Virus record (IMG/VR): IMGVR_UViG_3300023184_009648
Coordinates: 22,321-86,320 of that record
DNA from: a virus
Strand: one strand, 5' to 3'
Length of the DNA: 64,000 nt
Part shown: piece by piece, positions 1,716 through 60,980 of the stretch
Position numbering within the stretch: the stretch's first letter is position 1
Layout: every line of letters begins with the position of its first letter
The notes under the pieces: model-generated
What the model saw: only the letters and a program-made list of their open reading frames with translations
Databases searched by the model: none
Told to the model about the DNA's origin: nothing
Program-made: the position numbers and the translations under genes

Positions 1716-2599
1716 TGAAACATCGTGGTAGAATTCAAAGCGATGAAGAAAAACAAAGACGGATTGAGCAAGCATTAAAAAATCGCCGCCATCCGCCACA
1801 ACCTATCAAATTGCCTAATCCAGAACCACGCCGTGTTGTTAGTCGCATTCATCGTTCTGGAACAATAATAAAATCTAAACCTTTAATAATTAGACCATTT
1901 TCTCCATTTACTGCAACATTCAAGCACTCAGGTGATCTTGGAGATTTATGGTATAGTTTGCCAGTAATACGGTATCTTGGAGGTGGATCACTTTATTTAA
2001 ATCCTGATGGTCTTAAAACTAGAAAACCTGACGGTACAATAAGCGGTCTTAATCCAGAACTTATAAAGATGAGCATTCCATTATTAGAATTGCAACATTA
2101 CATAAAAAAAGTAGAAAAATGGAATCAGCATCAAAAAGTATCTCTTGATATTGATATATTTAGAAAAATATTTCCTCCAAAGCCAAGCTTGTGTGAAAAA
2201 ATTTTAGCTTCTTTTTCTGTTCCTTTTTCTGAGATACAGAAACCTTGGATTGAATGTGATTCTAAAAATATAGCCAAGGTTGTTTTTAACCGATCTTTTA
2301 GATACAGAAATGAAAATACAAAATACAAAGAAATACTTGCAGACAATAAAGAAAGTTCTGTTTTTATAGGTCTTCCAGAAGAGCATCAAGACTTTGAAAG
2401 CAAATTTGGAAAAATTGATTATTATAAAATTAAAGATTTTCTTGAAATGGCACAAATTATAAACGGAGCAGAATTATTTGTAGGAAACCAAAGTAGTTCA
2501 TTAGCTTTAGCAATAGCTATGCACAAACCATTCATTCAAGAAGCTTACATCCATGGAGCAGATTGCAAAATTGAAATTTCTAATGCAAAATACATGTAA
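1715..2599 (+). CDS. GT9/heptosyltransferase-like glycosyltransferase
   Basis: HSGDLGD and FLEMAQIINGAELFVGNQSS motifs. Confidence 0.7.
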   Translation: MKHRGRIQSDEEKQRRIEQALKNRRHPPQPIKLPNPEPRRVVSRIHRSGTIIKSKPLIIRPFSPFTATFKHSGDLGDLWYSLPVIRYLGGGSLYLNPDGLKTRKPDGTISGLNPELIKMSIPLLELQHYIKKVEKWNQHQKVSLDIDIFRKIFPPKPSLCEKILASFSVPFSEIQKPWIECDSKNIAKVVFNRSFRYRNENTKYKEILADNKESSVFIGLPEEHQDFESKFGKIDYYKIKDFLEMAQIINGAELFVGNQSSSLALAIAMHKPFIQEAYIHGADCKIEISNAKYM

Positions 2600-3563
2600 A
2601 TTTTTACTTACTGGCGCAAATAAAAACAATTCTACTGATGGTGTAATTGTCAGTGGAATCACACATATACTTAAAAACTTTTTTCCAAATTGCAAAACAG
2701 ACTATATTACTCTGCAAGATTTAATCCCCATGGAAAAAAGCAAATTACTAACAGAAAAAAAATATGACATGTTATTTGTTTGCGGAACTCCATGGTTGTG
2801 GCATAATTTTCAAGTTTCTACAAAGTATAAAAATTTAATCAGATTATTTGAAGCACATCCAGAATGTAAAAAAATTTTTTTGGGTGCTGGGTCATGTTTA
2901 AATATTTCAGATATCAACAGTGATATTTTAAAAAGTTCAGAAGAAATTAACGGCATTCAAAAATTGTATCTACAATGTATCAACATTGTAAGAGACAATA
3001 TTGCACATGAACTTCTTCAAAATGCCAAAGTAAATTCTACATTATTGCCATGTCCATCTTATTTTTGCTATGGCACAGAATCTATCAACGAAGGACTTAG
3101 AAAAAATAATGTACTTGTTTATATTGATCCTCGAAAATCTATATCTGAATCGGGGTGGCAATGCTCTAAAAAATTAGATCATTTTAATGAATTGAATTTA
3201 TACTTTTACAATCAATTTAAACCAAAAGTATATGTTGCAAATAGATTAGATATCGAAGGAGCTATGTCTGCTGGTTTGCCAAGACCGTTATTGTTAAAAA
3301 ACTACTATCAAACTTTAAAAGTTATGGAAGAAGCTGATTATGTACTTTCTTCTCGTGTTCATTGTGCAGTTCCGGGTTTTGTACAAGGAAAAGCAATTGG
3401 TTTAATTCCTATTGATAGTCGCAGTAAAACTCTTGAAGATTTTGGTTGCTTAATGATTGATGATGTGAAAGATTTTGCAAAACTAAAACATGAAAAACGC
3501 CATTTTTTAAATGCACTAAAAACTTATAAAGAATTGTTGATTCCAATGACAGAAAACAATTGA
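2583..3563 (+). CDS. polysaccharide pyruvyl-transferase-family protein
   Basis: CGTP, IVRD, LPCP and SSRVHCAV motifs; start moved to the ATG at 2583. Confidence 0.7.
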   Translation: MQNTCKFLLTGANKNNSTDGVIVSGITHILKNFFPNCKTDYITLQDLIPMEKSKLLTEKKYDMLFVCGTPWLWHNFQVSTKYKNLIRLFEAHPECKKIFLGAGSCLNISDINSDILKSSEEINGIQKLYLQCINIVRDNIAHELLQNAKVNSTLLPCPSYFCYGTESINEGLRKNNVLVYIDPRKSISESGWQCSKKLDHFNELNLYFYNQFKPKVYVANRLDIEGAMSAGLPRPLLLKNYYQTLKVMEEADYVLSSRVHCAVPGFVQGKAIGLIPIDSRSKTLEDFGCLMIDDVKDFAKLKHEKRHFLNALKTYKELLIPMTENN

Positions 3564-3608
3564 ATGTAAAAGAGTCATATATAATTTATAAAAACATAAA
3601 GAGGTAAT

Positions 3609-4049
3609 ATGCAAAAAGATTTAACCACTGATGAAGTGCAAGAAGCTTTAAAAAAGCTAAATATTTTTCTAGACGATGCAAAAAAACAATGGGATGCTCA
3701 AAATCCCAATCCCAAAAGTTGGTTTGGGATTAACCGTGGTGTTTTGTTAAAAGCAACAACTTTTCTTACATGCATCACCGATGAACTTATTCAATATGTT
3801 GAAACGATTATTGATAAAGGACCAGATAAAAGAGCAGCTGTTATTTTAACAATGGGACAATTATTTGATTATGTAATGCAATCATTTGCACCCTTGTGGC
3901 TCAAGCCTATGCTGCCTGCAATGAAACAAATTGTTGTTACCATTGTTATTGGAAACTTAATTGAATTTATTGTGGCAAAATACAGAGCAGGATATTGGAA
4001 AATGGAGCAAAAAAATGAGTCTGTCAATCAACCTATCAGCGCTAATTAA
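3609..4049 (+). CDS. hypothetical helical/membrane-associated protein
   Basis: GAGG RBS; hydrophobic C-terminal half; overlaps the protease gene. Confidence 0.6.
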   Translation: MQKDLTTDEVQEALKKLNIFLDDAKKQWDAQNPNPKSWFGINRGVLLKATTFLTCITDELIQYVETIIDKGPDKRAAVILTMGQLFDYVMQSFAPLWLKPMLPAMKQIVVTIVIGNLIEFIVAKYRAGYWKMEQKNESVNQPISAN

Positions 4050-4986
4050 CAAAATTGGGTTACTTCCATTCACAAGAGAAGAAGTTCTTTCTGTTCAAGA
4101 TGTAGAACAGAGATCCGGTTGGGAAATTACTGCTTTTGATCTTCCTGAGTCTTGGAACTACACTCAAGGAGAAGGTGTTGTTGTAGCCGTACTAGACACT
4201 GGGGCTGATCTTAATCATCAAGACCTTGCCCCCAACCTTCTTCAAGGTAAAAACTTCGTTGATCCAAGCAAACCTCCCCAAGATGATAATGGCCATGGCA
4301 GTCATGTATCAGGAATTATTTGTGCCTTAAATAACAATATTGGGATTGTAGGCGTTGCACCCAAAACTAAAGTAATGCCAGTGAAAGTTCTTGATTCATT
4401 GGGAAATGGTAATTTAGATGTAGTAGCAGAAGGAATTAGATGGGCAACAAATCAAGGAGTAGATTTTATTACTATGTCGCTTGGTTCGCCATCACAAATA
4501 CCTGTTGTAGAAGATGCAATAAAATACGCAACTGATCGTGGAGTTATTATTTGGTGTGCCGCAGGAAATGCTGGTAAAACTCGTCAAATATTTTATCCAG
4601 CAGCTTATCCGCAATGCATTGGTATTGGAGCAATTGACGAAAGCTTTAATCGTGCAGACTTTAGCTGTACTGGTCCAGATCTTGATTTTGTAGCACCGGG
4701 TGTAAAGATTTTGAGCACCGTACCAGACAATTGGTATGCAGTACTTTCTGGTACAAGCATGGCAAATCCTTTTGCCGTAGGTATTGGATGCCTTCTATTA
4801 TCATATAAGCGTAAAACAGGAATGAATTTACGACTCAATAATGCCCAAGATTACATTGAAGCATTGAAGCAATATACTATTCCAACCACAAACCCTAATT
4901 TTGGAAATCAACATTTTTTTGAAGGATTTGGAATCATTGACGCTCGTAAAATGAATGAATGGATTGCGTCACACAACAATAGTTAA
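4015..4986 (+). CDS. S8 subtilisin-family serine protease, intracellular (ISP)-type
   Basis: Catalytic motifs VAVLDTG, HGSHVSG and GTSMANP; AAGN oxyanion motif; LLPF N-terminal extension; no signal peptide. Confidence 0.92.
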   Translation: MSLSINLSALINKIGLLPFTREEVLSVQDVEQRSGWEITAFDLPESWNYTQGEGVVVAVLDTGADLNHQDLAPNLLQGKNFVDPSKPPQDDNGHGSHVSGIICALNNNIGIVGVAPKTKVMPVKVLDSLGNGNLDVVAEGIRWATNQGVDFITMSLGSPSQIPVVEDAIKYATDRGVIIWCAAGNAGKTRQIFYPAAYPQCIGIGAIDESFNRADFSCTGPDLDFVAPGVKILSTVPDNWYAVLSGTSMANPFAVGIGCLLLSYKRKTGMNLRLNNAQDYIEALKQYTIPTTNPNFGNQHFFEGFGIIDARKMNEWIASHNNS

Positions 4987-5594
4987 TCTTTTTCTGGTAA
5001 TTTAATTGGTGGAAGTTCATAAAGCATAAACTCTTGTTCTTGACTCAAACTTCCATCTTTTCCTTGGCCTTTTTTTCCATCTTCTTTGCCATATCCCTCA
5101 GGATTTTGCTGTCCTTCACCTTTTGCTTTGCCTTGAGAACCACCAACCTTTTTACCTTTAGCTAAAGATTGCATGGCTTGTTGAACTTTTTCATGTGTTT
5201 CACGAGTATAAGGAAGTCTATAAACTCGTGGTTCATCAGAATTTTTTTTAGATGAAAAAGGAGCTAGCCAAGAATTGGGTTTAGTTTCAACAATTTCATT
5301 TTCATCATCAAGAGCGTTGGCCCAAATAAGAATATAACCCTTTTTATTGAAATCACTGTTAGATGGCTCATGAACAAAAGCCCAAAGCATGCCAAATTTT
5401 TTTGGCAAAGGCGATTCAGCAGCCCACCCAGATATATTTCCTAAACTGTTCCAGATTACAAAATTAAAATAAAGAACAAGAGGAACTGCTATAACTTTAA
5501 TTAACCAATGTCCTTTGCCAAGAATAATAAACCAAAGCAATACTGCACAAATAACTACAAAGGTGAATGGTATGCCAATTAAAGATAAATCCAT
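4983..5594 (-). CDS. membrane protein (two N-terminal TM helices, soluble C-domain), third gene of the motor-like operon
   Basis: Two hydrophobic segments within residues 1-55; 2 nt from the upstream gene. Confidence 0.7.
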   Translation of the reverse strand: MDLSLIGIPFTFVVICAVLLWFIILGKGHWLIKVIAVPLVLYFNFVIWNSLGNISGWAAESPLPKKFGMLWAFVHEPSNSDFNKKGYILIWANALDDENEIVETKPNSWLAPFSSKKNSDEPRVYRLPYTRETHEKVQQAMQSLAKGKKVGGSQGKAKGEGQQNPEGYGKEDGKKGQGKDGSLSQEQEFMLYELPPIKLPEKD

Positions 5595-5596
5595 GT

Positions 5597-6214
5597 TTAG
5601 CTTCCTTTTTGCTTAAGAGCCTGCGTTAATGATTTTGGCAGTGTATTATGACTCACCATATCACCAGATTTGTTTAGTTTAAAACGCAATAAAGTTTTTT
5701 CGTCTCCTGATTTTTCAAGTATCAATTCATTTACAATCAATGTTTTTACTTGTGGATTTAACTTTTCGACCATAACACTAACTTTACAAGGTTTTGGATC
5801 ATTTTTACGATAGGCGTGAGCATTTATGCAATATTCACCTTCTTCAAAGCCACGAAGTGTGACGATCTCTCTGTTATATGGATATCTAATTTGTCCATTT
5901 GGGGTTTCTACAAAATCATTTCTATGACCAAGATCATCTCGATCAAGATGCATGAGTCCATCTTCTCTACGACGGAAACAAACAAGTGCACCTCTTGGAT
6001 CTTCTACATAAAGATCAATATCATCATCCATTTCGTCGTTCCAAGACAAAGTTATCATATATTCTGCTTTGATTTGCACAGAAGATTTTTTATTTTCTTT
6101 GTCTACATTTATCATCGCAAAAGCCAAAACAAACATAGCTGTAAAAGCAAGAAGCATATTAAAAAGAAGATCAAGAAAAGAAGTGTTGCAGCTATAAAGC
6201 CTTTTCATCTGCAT
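5597..6214 (-). CDS. MotB/ExbD-like single-TM protein with YfaP/DUF2135-like periplasmic domain
   Basis: TM SFLDLLFNMLLAFTAMFVLAFAMI with intramembrane Asp; ITLSW...DIDLYVEDP...LDRDD...GEY motif; start at 6214 or 6208. Confidence 0.65.
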   Translation of the reverse strand: MQMKRLYSCNTSFLDLLFNMLLAFTAMFVLAFAMINVDKENKKSSVQIKAEYMITLSWNDEMDDDIDLYVEDPRGALVCFRRREDGLMHLDRDDLGHRNDFVETPNGQIRYPYNREIVTLRGFEEGEYCINAHAYRKNDPKPCKVSVMVEKLNPQVKTLIVNELILEKSGDEKTLLRFKLNKSGDMVSHNTLPKSLTQALKQKGS

Positions 6215-6725
6215 TGGACTCCTCACTTATATGATTTTTAAAAACTTCTAATCTTTGAGCGAAAAGAAAATACTGTAGCTTAAGCAACTGCCCGCAAATC
6301 AAACCAACAAGTGTGGTGTAAAGTGCTGTTGCCATGCTTTTTCCCAATTCAGAAAGAAGTCCTTGTACTGTTTTTATATTTTGAAGATCAAGTGTTTCAA
6401 ACCCTGTAAGCATCATAATGAAACCTATAATAGTGCCTAACATGCCAAGGTTCAGGCAAAACTCACTCATAAACCAACCTAGTTCTTCACGACGAGCAAA
6501 AAGTTCATAGGTTTCTTTATCCATACTTTTACGGCCTCCCATATTGAGAATATGATTGCCACAGTTTGTAGATTGAATGACAAATATCAAAAATGTAAAA
6601 GCACTAAGATAACTTGCATCCTTTGACCAAATAGTTTGTGGAATTTGCAAAAAAAATGCATAAGCAGTACCAACAATCATCAAAATATAAAATAACCACC
6701 ACTTAAGAAATGTTTCATTTCGCAT
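6192..6725 (-). CDS. MotA/TolQ/ExbB proton-channel family protein
   Basis: LGMLGTIIG and MATALYTTLVGL signature helices. Confidence 0.88.
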   Translation of the reverse strand: MRNETFLKWWLFYILMIVGTAYAFFLQIPQTIWSKDASYLSAFTFLIFVIQSTNCGNHILNMGGRKSMDKETYELFARREELGWFMSEFCLNLGMLGTIIGFIMMLTGFETLDLQNIKTVQGLLSELGKSMATALYTTLVGLICGQLLKLQYFLFAQRLEVFKNHISEESNADEKAL

Positions 6726-7215
6726 CTTTAATCTCCTTTTTTAACTCTTCAATTTTATTTTTTAACATTGCAGCAATTTCATAATTTTCAACTTTTACAG
6801 CTTTAACTATTTTTTCTTCCAATATTTGAATTTGTTCTTTGATGTTTTCTAAAAAATAATGATCTTCAAAATTTTTGGGCATTTTGCCTACATGCTTACA
6901 TGATTTCTGACAACGGCTAAATATTTGTAAGGCAATAGTTTTATGAGCATCGTAACAATCAGGACAACCAAAAAAATGTTTACTAGCAATTTCTGTTAAT
7001 GATGTTCCACAAAATTTACAAATATATTTTTGTAATTTTGATGCGTCTTGTAAAATAAACATATTTAAATTATTTTTCAGTTGGCAAATTAGAAAATAAG
7101 ATGGGCCACATACTTGACAAGCGTCACAATTTATTTCAATGTTATTTTCTAATTTTGGAACCTGCATATTTTTGGGATTGGGGCAGGGATTGTTGGTGAA
7201 AGGACAATTATCCAT
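6715..7215 (-). CDS. McsA-like zinc-finger/UVR-domain protein
   Basis: CKFCG...GCPDCY...HVGKMP plus C-terminal UVR motif AVKVENYEIAAMLKNKI. Confidence 0.8.
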   Translation of the reverse strand: MDNCPFTNNPCPNPKNMQVPKLENNIEINCDACQVCGPSYFLICQLKNNLNMFILQDASKLQKYICKFCGTSLTEIASKHFFGCPDCYDAHKTIALQIFSRCQKSCKHVGKMPKNFEDHYFLENIKEQIQILEEKIVKAVKVENYEIAAMLKNKIEELKKEIKDAK

Positions 7216-7218
7216 GCT

Positions 7219-7749
7219 TTATTCCTTTTTAGAAGTTAAATTATTTTTAAATTTCAAAGCTTTATTCTGCAAAGATTTTTTTTCAGGTTCTGTGATATCA
7301 TTTTTTAAAATGATCAAAACATTTTCAACAAATTGACAATAAGAATTTACAAATTCACGACGAACTTCAAGCAAATCATTATAATAACTTTGCACTTGTT
7401 TTTTTGTTAAAGTTGATTTGTATTCTGGATCATTAAACTTATCTATCTCTTTGGCCCAAATGCTTTGAAGTTTTTCAGATTGCTCCAATAATTGATTAGC
7501 TAAAACAATTATAAAAACATGTTGTTGAAGATTTGATAATTCAGTAAAAGATTTTGTTTTATTGTCGTCCTTATCAGTTACCTCTATGGTTTTCCAAAAC
7601 TCAGTATTAAAAATTCGTTTGTTATAGCGTCGATTTAATTCAATAACAGACTCATAATTTTCAGCTTTTGCCTGAAATTGAGGCTGGTCTGCAAAATTGC
7701 ATATTATGAGCAAAAAAGCAATAGCTGTTATCATTTGCACTCTTTTCAT
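7219..7749 (-). CDS. predicted exported helical protein
   Basis: N-terminal signal-peptide-like MKRVQMITAIAFLLIICNFA. Confidence 0.6.
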   Translation of the reverse strand: MKRVQMITAIAFLLIICNFADQPQFQAKAENYESVIELNRRYNKRIFNTEFWKTIEVTDKDDNKTKSFTELSNLQQHVFIIVLANQLLEQSEKLQSIWAKEIDKFNDPEYKSTLTKKQVQSYYNDLLEVRREFVNSYCQFVENVLIILKNDITEPEKKSLQNKALKFKNNLTSKKE

Positions 7750-8582
7750 TAAGGCAAAGCTGTGCCTGATACTCTCATTGTAAATCCATCATCCTGAGTA
7801 GCAGCAGCATTAGGTGGAACAACACGCTTTATCCAAACAGGTATAACATCTAGATTTCTAATTTGTCCAACTTGAAATGCAGAGGTACTAAAAACAACAT
7901 TTGTAGGAGGAGTTATTTCTGTATCAATAGAATCAGCTTCACTGTTAATAGGACTCCCGCTAACAGCTTTATAAATATTTAAAACTGGCTGAGAATAACC
8001 ACTATAAGTTAAATTGTTATTTGTTTCAACTAAAATTTCATGAAATCGATATCCAGCCAAGCCAATAAAATTTATTTCAAATGTTGTAGAATCTGAAATA
8101 GAATCATAACTGCCAGAAACTGTTATATCTTCAAGATTTGGAACGGTTCTAAGAGCACTTTGAATGTTCAGTGCCCAATCTACGACACTGACACTCCAAT
8201 TTGCAACAAGACCACCATGAACACTAGTGTCTGAATAAGAAAAAACATTATTGCCACCGGTAATAGTAGATGCATTGGTTACCGTGATAAACTGACGATC
8301 ATTTTGTAATAAATACCCAAGATTAACATCAGCACCAGATGGAACATCATATTGAACAAAAATAGATGCATTATACAAAGTCTCAGTAAGATTATCATTG
8401 CTAAGATAAATACAACGATATTTAGTAGAACCAGCAGTTGCTTCACTTGTTGATACATCCTGAAACAATGTGGTTCCAGCAATAGGATTTACAGACGGAG
8501 CACCGCCAAGAGAGGCATTAGGATCAGTATTTGTCAATCCGCCTGAAAGTAAAAACTTTAAATCTCCTGCTCCAATTAACAT
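7749..8582 (-). CDS. putative virion structural protein
   Basis: Beta-rich, S/T/G-rich; LSGG..N.DPNASLGG, YRCIY and VWIKRVV motifs recalled from phage structural proteins. Confidence 0.55.
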   Translation of the reverse strand: MLIGAGDLKFLLSGGLTNTDPNASLGGAPSVNPIAGTTLFQDVSTSEATAGSTKYRCIYLSNDNLTETLYNASIFVQYDVPSGADVNLGYLLQNDRQFITVTNASTITGGNNVFSYSDTSVHGGLVANWSVSVVDWALNIQSALRTVPNLEDITVSGSYDSISDSTTFEINFIGLAGYRFHEILVETNNNLTYSGYSQPVLNIYKAVSGSPINSEADSIDTEITPPTNVVFSTSAFQVGQIRNLDVIPVWIKRVVPPNAAATQDDGFTMRVSGTALP

Positions 8583-8980
8583 TAAGCTTCCTCGTTGAGA
8601 TTCCTAGAAATTATATAAGAAACATTACGGCTACTGTAGTCAGCAACATTAAGAATTTCGTCAACGGTCAGTCAATGCCATATATATTTAAAATTTTTTC
8701 ACCATATTTTTTCAACCTATTTGGTGAAATCTGATTATGATGAAAAGTATAATAAATTTTTGCTTGTGATCGCCCTATTAAAAGGGATAATTTCAGCGAT
8801 TTTCACATCGAAATCATGCAAATAAAGCTGAATAAGCTTAGCATTATCTCCGCTAATATCGATGAAACAACGAAATCCATGCATAACATATGTACTGAAT
8901 AGATACTTTTTTTACTAAAATTGGTTGTCCGTTTTATTTAATCATATAAAATGGTTTATCTGTCTTACCGGAAAGGCGGT

Positions 8981-9832: not shown

Positions 9833-10750
9833 ATGGAATTCACTTTCGGAACTGATCCTGAATTTATGGTCTCTCGTTGGGATGATCTGCAAAGTGCTAT
9901 TTCTTTACTTCCCAGAAAAGAAGCTGCACTTAGTCGAAATGGTAGTAAATTTTATTATGATAATGTTCTTGCAGAAATTGCTGTTAAACCCAGCAAAAAT
10001 CGAGCAGAAGCAACTGAAAATATATGTAAAGCATTACAAAATCTTTCTAAGATCCTTAAACCTGCTCGCTTTACCATTCAAGCATCAGCTAAATATCCAA
10101 TCAAACAACTTAATGACAAAGACGCAAGGATTGCTGGTTGTAATCCAGAATGGGACGCATATACTTTGCGTTGTATTTTGCCGCCTGATGAAGTTATTTC
10201 TAAAACAGCTTTTAGAACTGCTGGGGGGCATATTCACATTGGAGCTAAGGATTTTTCTGATTCAATAAACGCATTAAATGCCATTCGCATGATGGACTTG
10301 TTTATTGCTATTCCTGCCTTGTTAATGGATACAGATGAAACTTCCAAAGATCGCCGTAAAGTTTACGGACATGCTGGCAGTCATCGTGGCACTGATTATG
10401 GATTTGAGTATCGAACTCTTGGTAATTTTTGGCTCTCTAGCCCTAATCATGTTAATTTGATTTATGATTTAACATCTTTCGTTCTGGATTTTGTAAAAGA
10501 AGAAATGCATAAAAAGTTTTGGTCATTTGATGAATCTTTATTGCAAAAAGGAGATCCTTGCAAAGCATTTAAATGCACAGGCTATGATGTAAAACTATTG
10601 TGCAAATGTATCAATACATGCGATAAAAAGCAGGCAGAAAAATTTATGCTTATTGTTCAAAACTATTTGCCTGACAACCTAGTTCAAGAAATTGAAAAAT
10701 TATCCAGCAATCCCTTGCCTGATCCATATGAGGCATGGGGCATTTCATGA
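9833..10750 (+). CDS. phiEco32-like COOH-NH2 ligase (type 2)
   Basis: GTDPEF, DNVLAE, GCNPE, RTAGGHIHIG, YGHAG and EYRTL motifs. Confidence 0.88.
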   Translation: MEFTFGTDPEFMVSRWDDLQSAISLLPRKEAALSRNGSKFYYDNVLAEIAVKPSKNRAEATENICKALQNLSKILKPARFTIQASAKYPIKQLNDKDARIAGCNPEWDAYTLRCILPPDEVISKTAFRTAGGHIHIGAKDFSDSINALNAIRMMDLFIAIPALLMDTDETSKDRRKVYGHAGSHRGTDYGFEYRTLGNFWLSSPNHVNLIYDLTSFVLDFVKEEMHKKFWSFDESLLQKGDPCKAFKCTGYDVKLLCKCINTCDKKQAEKFMLIVQNYLPDNLVQEIEKLSSNPLPDPYEAWGIS

Positions 10751-22167: not shown

Positions 22168-23046
22168 TTACATCATTCTAGGTCCAAGCAAATCGCCAAA
22201 GCGAACCAAGAGACGATCTTCAAAATCTTTCTTTTCTTGAAGACCTTCAGCAAGAATGATAGCTCCATCTAACTGAACGCCGCCATTAGGACCCGGAGGA
22301 TTTCCAATCCTACTTCTAATGCGACCTAAAATTATTTTAGCAAAAGCAAGTGCACCTTCTTGCATTGCTTGTGTAACCATTTTAAAATCGGGTTTTTTAG
22401 GAAGGTAACGAACTGCAACAGGATAATTACGATATGGAACTGGATAAATCTTGATGTGTTCATAACCACCAAGAAACTCCCATCCGCCTTGCTGACCTGA
22501 TATTCGGTTATACATATCTTCATATTGTTTGTAAAGAACCCAATCACTCATTTTGCCCCAAACTGGTTGTTGAGGGTTGATACCACCGGCAATACTTCCG
22601 TAAGCTCCTGCTCCCATGTATTCAAGGGGAATCACACCACCAAGATCAGAAGCACTAAAGGCGTAATTGGCTGTTTCTTTATATGAAACACTTCGAATAA
22701 ATCCTACATCTACTGGCATTTTATAAACACTTTGACCTGCATTTGTGTAAAAAGTATAGTATTGAAAATATTCCATAGGAGCATAATCTTCAAAAATTTG
22801 AAGAGCAAAATCTATACAATTTTCAAGTTGTTGATCATCTATTTCTAGTGGAAGAACTGGAGCTCCGAGCATAGTAAGAACATAATCTTTAATTTGCTCT
22901 CGAACCTTAGCTCTATTACGACGAGGACCAATTCGATCAAGTGGATCAGTGGGGCCAAGATTGTTACAACCCGTACCACAAGAAAGTGCATTATATTGAT
23001 CTTGGGTCGGTCTAGGAATAAAAAGGGTGTTACTCATGGCTTCCAT
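22168..23046 (-). CDS. neck/head-tail adaptor protein (T4 gp13-like)
   Basis: IKDYVLTMLGAPVLPLEIDDQQLENCID and PGPNGGVQLDG motifs. Confidence 0.85.
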   Translation of the reverse strand: MEAMSNTLFIPRPTQDQYNALSCGTGCNNLGPTDPLDRIGPRRNRAKVREQIKDYVLTMLGAPVLPLEIDDQQLENCIDFALQIFEDYAPMEYFQYYTFYTNAGQSVYKMPVDVGFIRSVSYKETANYAFSASDLGGVIPLEYMGAGAYGSIAGGINPQQPVWGKMSDWVLYKQYEDMYNRISGQQGGWEFLGGYEHIKIYPVPYRNYPVAVRYLPKKPDFKMVTQAMQEGALAFAKIILGRIRSRIGNPPGPNGGVQLDGAIILAEGLQEKKDFEDRLLVRFGDLLGPRMM

Positions 23047-23127
23047 ATGAAAAATTGTGTTTAGTTATGGTTATATATTCTATCGAGTTGAGATATTTGA
23101 ATTTCAAGAACACTCCAAAGGTAAGTT

Positions 23128-33929: not shown

Positions 33930-33952
33930 GAGATATATAAGGAGAACTTATT

Positions 33953-34597: not shown

Positions 34598-34630
34598 AAT
34601 CTATTTTTTGGATTTATATTACTAATATAT

Positions 34631-34672
34631 AAGAAACAGACCTTGTACATAATACAAGGTCTGTTTCTTTTT
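34631..34672 (+). terminator. 17-bp stem terminator between the two tube genes
   Basis: AAGAAACAGACCTTGTA-CATAA-TACAAGGTCTGTTTCTT plus T-tract. Confidence 0.8.
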
Positions 34673-60914: not shown

Positions 60915-60980
60915 AAATGTTCCTCTAATTTATATAGAAGACTGCACTCTTTTAAGGTAAGAGGTTTCAGAGGAACAAAT

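Follow-up and report, generated by a model that had tools for sequence, protein, structure and literature searches.

Ion-driven 5:2 motors form a small and intensely studied group, and more of them are said to remain undiscovered (PMC9389320, PMC12204202, PMC12505986). Surveys of the MotA/ExbB superfamily mention unexplored relatives and "DUF appendages" (PMC12505986, PMC12204202, PMC9389320), and further undiscovered motor-driven transducers are expected (PMC12204202). Here we describe three adjacent genes, referred to as A, B, and C, on a 64,000-nucleotide stretch of virus DNA (positions 22,321 to 86,320 of the IMG/VR record IMGVR_UViG_3300023184_009648; the whole stretch is called the window below). 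The surveys do not mention this trio, and our literature search found no description of it or of phage-borne MotA/ExbB modules. An earlier note, made from the letters of the window, had proposed an uncharacterized MotA/ExbB-type motor with an atypical outer domain at this locus, and the results below support a motor-like module of that kind. We consider it probable that A, B, and C make up a self-contained ion-driven machine of the inner membrane, belonging to the MotA/ExbB superfamily, undescribed so far and common to phages and bacteria. The trio is compact, with about 590 residues in total, and two of its three parts are without a Pfam family.

Comparison with described motor systems

The Ton and Tol systems (ExbB-ExbD-TonB and TolQ-TolR-TolA) resemble the trio in that three genes encode a channel protein of PF01618, a partner that crosses the membrane once and carries an Asp there, and a third, periplasmic protein with a membrane anchor, the output being on the periplasmic side. 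However, A has four hydrophobic segments and no cytoplasmic domain of the ExbB/TolQ type, and the ectodomain of B is predicted to be a TerD-like sandwich rather than an ExbD/TolR fold. C differs from TonB and TolA in that it has two transmembrane (TM) helices, neither of which holds a conserved His, and lacks a TonB_C or TolA domain as well as a spacer that is Pro-rich or long and helical. Membership in Ton/Tol was rejected for want of a third protein of the TonB/TolA type.

With the flagellar stators MotAB and PomAB, the trio shares a 4-TM A protein with its channel motifs in the last two helices, overlapping genes, and an N-in B protein whose Asp lies near the cytoplasmic end of the helix. 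In contrast to the large torque-generating domain of the stators, the loop of A has about 27 residues; B is without an OmpA-like peptidoglycan-binding domain (no Pfam match), the trio has no flagellar context, and its third subunit is obligatory. The antiphage pair ZorAB is likewise a non-flagellar MotAB-like pair, and ZorA is the best, though weak, match of A in PADLOC and NCBIfam. Models of ZorA, MotP, and PomA match A weakly and over the channel core only, the PADLOC matches reaching no more than 23 bits. With 177 residues, A lacks the long ZorA tail; there is no ZorC, ZorD, or ZorE nearby and no PADLOC match for B, C, or their neighbors, and the trio is carried by phages as well as among housekeeping genes on chromosomes. 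The features that define a flagellar stator (OmpA domain, torque loop) and Zorya (tail, effectors) are thus absent, and Pfam, PADLOC, and NCBIfam gave no OmpA, ExbD, TonB, or Zorya effector match in the cassette, in agreement with the earlier note. What the sequences do share with the wider MotA/ExbB/TolQ superfamily is PF01618, a single-pass Asp partner, and adjacent, co-inherited A and B genes.

Outside the motors, the closest relatives in form are TerD, PPC, and DUF2135 (YfaP), which have in common with B a calcium-type beta-sandwich fold and conserved acidic clusters. TerD is soluble and cytoplasmic, whereas the sandwich of B is predicted to be periplasmic and is fused to a motor-type TM helix.

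The three subunits

A matches PF01618 with an E value of 8e-8 and 32.5 bits, against a curated cut-off of 22.9, which confirms the MotA/TolQ/ExbB assignment made from the sequence earlier. The same family was present in all of the A homologs listed (at least 120), chromosomal copies scoring 35 to 43 bits. Hydropathy gives four hydrophobic segments (approximately residues 9-29, 37-53, 85-109, and 129-153), and the cytoplasmic parts are a loop of about 27 residues and a tail of about 26. The loop has a median length of 28 residues in viral copies (27 here) versus 57 in chromosomal copies. Among 168 homologs, the motifs GxxGTxxG and YTTxxG in the last two segments are near-invariant, as are residues G94, G97, T98, G101, T138, and G141.

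B carries its membrane Asp (Asp19, codon 6170-6172) within the motif FLDLLFN of the TM helix, and this Asp is kept in 399 of the 401 homologs that cover the site. An AlphaFold2 (AF2) model built with 78 homologs has a mean predicted local distance difference test (pLDDT) score of 92.8 and consists of a single N-in TM helix (residues 14-46), a short linker, and a beta-sandwich (residues 56-194). The closest fold is that of TerD (2qz7, Z 9.1, and 2kxt, Z 8.5, by VIA-align; Foldseek E value of 4e-5): residues 53-204 superpose on TerD with a Z of 9.1 and a root mean square deviation of 3.8 over 129 residues. The matches that follow have Z scores of at most 5.7 and are mostly Ca2+-binding jelly-roll domains of subtilases. 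In the sandwich, an acidic cluster (D69, D71, D97, D98, and E120) is essentially invariant among homologs, and the sandwich would probably bind Ca2+. Translation likely starts at ATG 6214 or 6208, placed behind a GAGGAG Shine-Dalgarno site.

The earlier description of the B ectodomain as YfaP/DUF2135-like holds in part. The B of the window has no Pfam match, including none to TerD, DUF2135, or PPC, and its best fold is TerD; however, other family members show weak matches to PPC (11 of 78, best E value of 6e-4) and DUF2135 (5 of 78, best E value of 2e-3), all below the curated cut-offs, and one ESM Atlas cluster of the family was automatically named YfaP, so that the label is fair but weak. 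ExbD (PF02472) does not match the B of the window and matches two of the 78 members weakly (E value of 5e-3), and the fold searches, which rank TerD first, list no ExbD or TolR chain, a domain of this kind nevertheless being possible. The B of the window matches phrog_1735 at an E value of 1e-5. Its family comprises 1,154 clusters at 90% identity and, at an E value of 1e-3 or below, 2,144 at 50% identity, and Pfam assigns a domain to none of these clusters. As a separate observation, the sandwich is 25% identical over 76 residues to the C-terminal jelly-roll of subtilase Tk-SP (Z 5.6); that an S8 subtilase gene adjoins the trio in the window may be coincidence.

C begins with a 2-TM hairpin (residues 3-25 and 30-54) whose connecting loop is rich in Lys and His. 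A small alpha/beta domain in the periplasmic part (residues 66-154, with conserved GWP...EP...EPRxYxLPY) is followed by a disordered loop rich in Gly, Lys, and Glu (residues 155-188) and by a conserved C-terminal strand, FYxLPPxKLPxK. In the AF2 model (pLDDT of 81 overall and 92 for the C-terminal strand block), this strand folds back onto the alpha/beta domain of the same protein. C had no match in Pfam, PHROG, NCBIfam, or PADLOC; Foldseek returned nothing at an E value of 0.001 or below, its only rows being faint and OB-fold-like, and VIA-align matched the helical hairpin only.

In one phage clade (loci L089 to L091), C is fused to an intact T4-type lysozyme (PF00959, E value of 5e-47) that keeps the catalytic motifs EFEG...YQD...GYGHT, an architecture common to 11 protein clusters. 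As the lysozyme follows the conserved terminal motif of C, the fusion would place the outer end of C at the peptidoglycan. No T4-type lysozyme was found in the 86-kb record from which the window is taken, which is approximately 20% of a genome.

Table 1. Positions of the trio, its neighbors, and features of related loci. Positions refer to the window unless a locus handle precedes them.
Feature	Position	Strand	Basis or remark
A subunit, 177 aa, MotA/ExbB family	6192..6725	-	PF01618 above curated cut-off
B subunit, 209 aa from GTG, single-pass with membrane Asp	5597..6226	-	AF2 model and homologs; no Pfam match
C subunit, 203 aa, 2-TM	4983..5594	-	AF2 model; no family match
McsA-like Cys-rich cytoplasmic protein, 166 aa	6715..7215	-	Partial McsA match
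176-aa protein, signal-like N-terminus	7219..7749	-	Hydrophobic segment; no family match
277-aa protein	7749..8582	-	phrog_13135, E 1e-10
S8 subtilase, convergent neighbor	3961..4986	+	Peptidase_S8, E 2e-51; phrog_3677
TATATAA, candidate phage promoter element	8611..8617	-	35 nt upstream of 277-aa gene
TATATAA sites upstream of six genes	8611-8617, 3578-3584, 23071-23077, 33934-33940, 34626-34632, 60930-60936		19-60 nt upstream
Polysaccharide pyruvyl transferase	2553-3563	+	
phiEco32-like COOH-NH2 ligase	9833-10750	+	PF14395; phrog_3815
C-lysozyme fusions	L089:2454-3356, L090:735-1622, L091:4212-5117		PF00959 after conserved C-terminal motif
Volactin-family actin-like protein	L021:8243-9292	-	PF25216, E 1e-70
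Trehalose-gene neighbors	L111:7204-8655, L137:3118-5580		Also at 9 further genome loci

Conservation and distribution of the trio

We searched for the trio with hidden Markov models of A, B, and C and compared 170 related loci, 90 of them viral and 80 from species genomes. A, B, and C stand in the same order in approximately 166 of these. A is immediately upstream of B in 88 of the 90 viral and 78 of the 80 genome loci, the exceptions including cuts at contig ends, and C directly follows B in approximately 167 of the 170; their stops and starts mostly overlap in both sets. No other neighbor family occurs in more than 14 of the 119 non-redundant loci. The earlier note had staked its motor on a membrane Asp conserved in homologs and on a co-conserved triad, and both expectations are borne out. 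Its five-gene unit is not supported, since the genes for the McsA-like protein and the putatively exported 176-aa protein, like those for the 277-aa protein and the S8 subtilase, are found with the trio in no loci other than those of four close relatives (L002 to L005); the conserved unit is therefore A-B-C.

Nor is the trio specific to phages. It is found on 211 viral contigs, but it also lies on multi-megabase bacterial chromosomes among ordinary genes, such as those for an M24 peptidase, an epimerase, SfsA, CobS/CobT, an EamA transporter, and an ABC transporter, and B occurs in 43 of 301 evenly sampled alphaproteobacterial genomes (14%, about one in seven). Cultured carriers are the Rhizobium phages RL2RES, in which the trio is gp110-112, P10VF, and those of the RHph series, as well as the temperate phage 16-3, in which it is p038/p040/p042; in all of them the genes are annotated as hypothetical, and the trio could be deleted there. 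In a quick, unrooted, and unfinished tree of B, the copy from the window falls in an all-viral subclade nested in a mixed viral and chromosomal clade, and the viral label changes at least 3 to 5 times. This is consistent with repeated exchange of the trio between hosts and phages, in a direction that such a tree leaves unshown. Carriage by phages makes one ask what advantage a motor of its own offers a virus, and the window adds to the carriers a phage lineage with a lineage-specific operon context.

Three side observations concern the neighborhoods and copy number of the trio. A Volactin-family actin-like protein is encoded within a few kilobases of it in nine non-redundant loci (five viral and four from genomes). 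On Geminicoccaceae-type chromosomes, the trio lies beside trehalose genes, namely, an OtsA-type GT20 gene and a GH15/trehalose-phosphatase fusion. Two genomes (G002, on contig C5, and G003, on C1) hold two divergent B copies each, one from each main clade of the family.

Proposed mechanism and alternatives

By homology, A and B are shown as the parts of a predicted ion pathway that runs through B-Asp19. By analogy with the described motors, and on that ground only, 4-TM A proteins would form a ring of several copies (5:2) about a B dimer and its TM helices. The ion path would run by B-Asp19 and along those faces of the last two A helices on which the conserved Thr and Gly residues lie, and the flow may set A and B, as ring and axle, in motion against each other. 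Because A has almost no cytoplasmic mass, the work would be delivered on the periplasmic side, where the TerD-like sandwich of B could serve as anchor, rotor, or output. C, by its 2-TM hairpin, is probably attached to the outer face of the A ring in the way of TonB and TolA, and would display its small periplasmic domain. Which ion is used, how many copies of each subunit assemble, where C sits, and all that is said here of function are inferred. A motor-type assembly with periplasmic output seems to us the probable arrangement, and we are less sure of any specific role. With its cytoplasmic mass near absent, the trio would be an attractive minimal system for studying how motors deliver work to the periplasm.

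The intact T4-type lysozyme that extends C in one phage clade makes the cell wall and envelope the likely workplace, and to this extent the envelope or cell wall remodeling suggested earlier gains some support. In the phage of the window, the trio would most likely be an auxiliary, host-derived module that draws on the membrane potential of the host and, in the course of infection, works on the envelope or senses it. Going further, we tentatively suggest, as a possibility that we hold with low confidence, that the trio represents a new functional class of ion-driven motor beside the flagellar, Ton/Tol, gliding/type IX secretion system (T9SS), and Zorya motors. Here, a minimal A-B engine with a TerD-like axle and a 2-TM rider would process or patrol the cell wall in bacteria and phages alike; phages might use it for wall remodeling or lysis control coupled to membrane potential, and the lysozyme-fused C would be a tool-bearing version.

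Several results weigh against the motor and cell wall readings. The A profile found nothing among PDB sequences at an E value of 0.01 or below, and as it matches no solved 5:2 motor, the link to the superfamily comes from the Pfam model alone. The Gly/Lys-rich segment of C is modeled by AF2 as a loop closed by the C-terminal strand and not as a spacer spanning the periplasm. Lysozyme-fused C proteins make up a small clade only, and a T4-type lysozyme gene adjoins the trio in 4 of the 119 non-redundant loci, genes for lysis or wall functions being rarely adjacent. The trio also occurs on contigs binned to the candidate phyla radiation (CPR), Actinomycetota, and Chloroflexota, so that an outer membrane target would not be required; these small contigs of metagenome-assembled genomes may be phage DNA.

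The alternative that survives best is a transducer of the Ton/Tol kind, which we nevertheless regard as unlikely. Here A-B would pull on C, and the released FYxLPPxKLP motif would bind a host envelope protein by strand addition and so energize or block a process of the outer layer, such as superinfection exclusion or uptake. The genes are arranged as in exbB-exbD-tonB and tolQ-tolR-tolA, C combines a membrane anchor with a linker that is low in complexity and varies in length and with a short conserved motif at its end, and more motor-driven transducers are expected (PMC12204202). This must be set against the architecture of C, which crosses the membrane twice, shows no TonB/TolA-type conserved His in its TM helices, and has no TonB_C or TolA match, against the AF2 docking of the terminal strand on C's own domain at a pLDDT of 92, and against the lack of a conserved adjacent gene for an outer membrane partner.

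Slightly less plausible still is a regulated ion leak or a sensor of proton motive force (PMF) that does no mechanical work. Such a device would depolarize the host in a controlled way or report the loss of PMF, and would set the timing of lysis or exclude other phages, much as a partner of a holin or pinholin might. It would account for an A protein without a cytoplasmic output domain, and the lysozyme-bearing form of C looks like an endolysin tethered to the membrane and possibly dependent on PMF for its activity. However, a leak could do without the large and strongly conserved domains that B and C have in the periplasm, many bacteria carry the trio as an operon of its own on the chromosome, and the adjacency of lysis genes in only 4 of 119 loci fits poorly with lysis timing.

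A counter-defense decoy, by which the phage proteins would enter or jam host Ton, Tol, or Zorya motors as the earlier note had considered, is very improbable and the least likely of these rivals: phages target Ton/Tol for entry and A is weakly similar to the ZorA channel core (PADLOC E value of 6e-6), but the trio is not phage specific, given its B in 43 of the 301 sampled genomes, it brings its own B and C as a conserved, complete, and self-contained unit among housekeeping genes on many bacterial chromosomes, and neither an invariant Asp nor an invariant site in the ectodomain would be required of a decoy.

Operon context in the window

The assignment of the window to a T4-like myovirus is based on its genes for a tail sheath, a baseplate hub, ribonucleotide reductase, and SbcC-like proteins. 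Near-identical DNA is present in freshwater and lake metagenomes from several studies, and a search of the cassette DNA against GenBank phages gave no match. IMG/VR labels the 86-kb record a provirus with a CheckV completeness of 20%; the window shows phage genes of the T4-like kind only.

Six minus-strand open reading frames (ORFs) are packed within positions 4983-8582. In the order 277-aa, 176-aa, McsA-like, A, B, and C, their spacings are -1, 3, -11, about -20, and 2 nt (negative values being overlaps), so the genes are tightly coupled; the five ORFs that the earlier note had listed as a coupled series are all present, with spacings of -20 to 3 nt. The stop of the McsA-like gene thus overlaps the A start by 11 nt and that of the 277-aa gene overlaps the 176-aa start, and the convergent S8 subtilase stop overlaps the C stop by 4 nt. 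The McsA-like, 176-aa, and 277-aa genes were added to the operon locally and lie outside its core. The S8 gene stands beside the trio in 3 of the 119 non-redundant loci, close relatives only, and genes for trypsin-like proteases adjoin the trio in 3; adjacency of lysozymes or proteases in 3 to 4 of 119 loci is too rare to be called an association in this sample.

The McsA homolog of the earlier note proved to be a partial one. The similarity covers residues 58-164 (of 166) and, in McsA, the C-terminal 100 residues with the second zinc finger, the HxGKxPK segment, and a UVR-like helix (UVR motif, E value of 0.0017); PDB chain 8wtb_B is matched at its residues 79-179 (E value of 2e-6). However, the protein scores 43.7 bits against the NCBIfam McsA model, whose cut-off is 210, so McsA proper was rejected; its N-terminal half differs, and it is not conserved alongside the trio. 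No kinase of the McsB type (PF00217) was found in the 86-kb record, a genome fragment.

In the 176-aa protein, a hydrophobic segment (residues 4-22) follows K2/R3, and the rest is rich in Lys and Glu. It is 27 to 34% identical to the copies in the four relatives and matches nothing in Pfam, PHROG, PADLOC, or NCBIfam. The 277-aa protein has an N-terminus rich in Gly, Ser, and Asn. Its gene is preceded by a 370-nt divergent intergenic region and probably heads the local transcription unit.

Sigma-70-like sites and terminators were at chance level only, and the T4 late promoter TATAAATA was neither found upstream of the operon nor enriched. The motif TATATAA occurs in 6 of 72 upstream regions versus 0.76 expected, including that of the gene after the tail sheath; across the window, it is not enriched (21 observed versus 15 expected). 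It is a weak candidate for a promoter element that this phage would use in place of T4's TATAAATA. The polysaccharide pyruvyl transferase and COOH-NH2 ligase genes flank the region, and the ligase gene is syntenic in close relatives.

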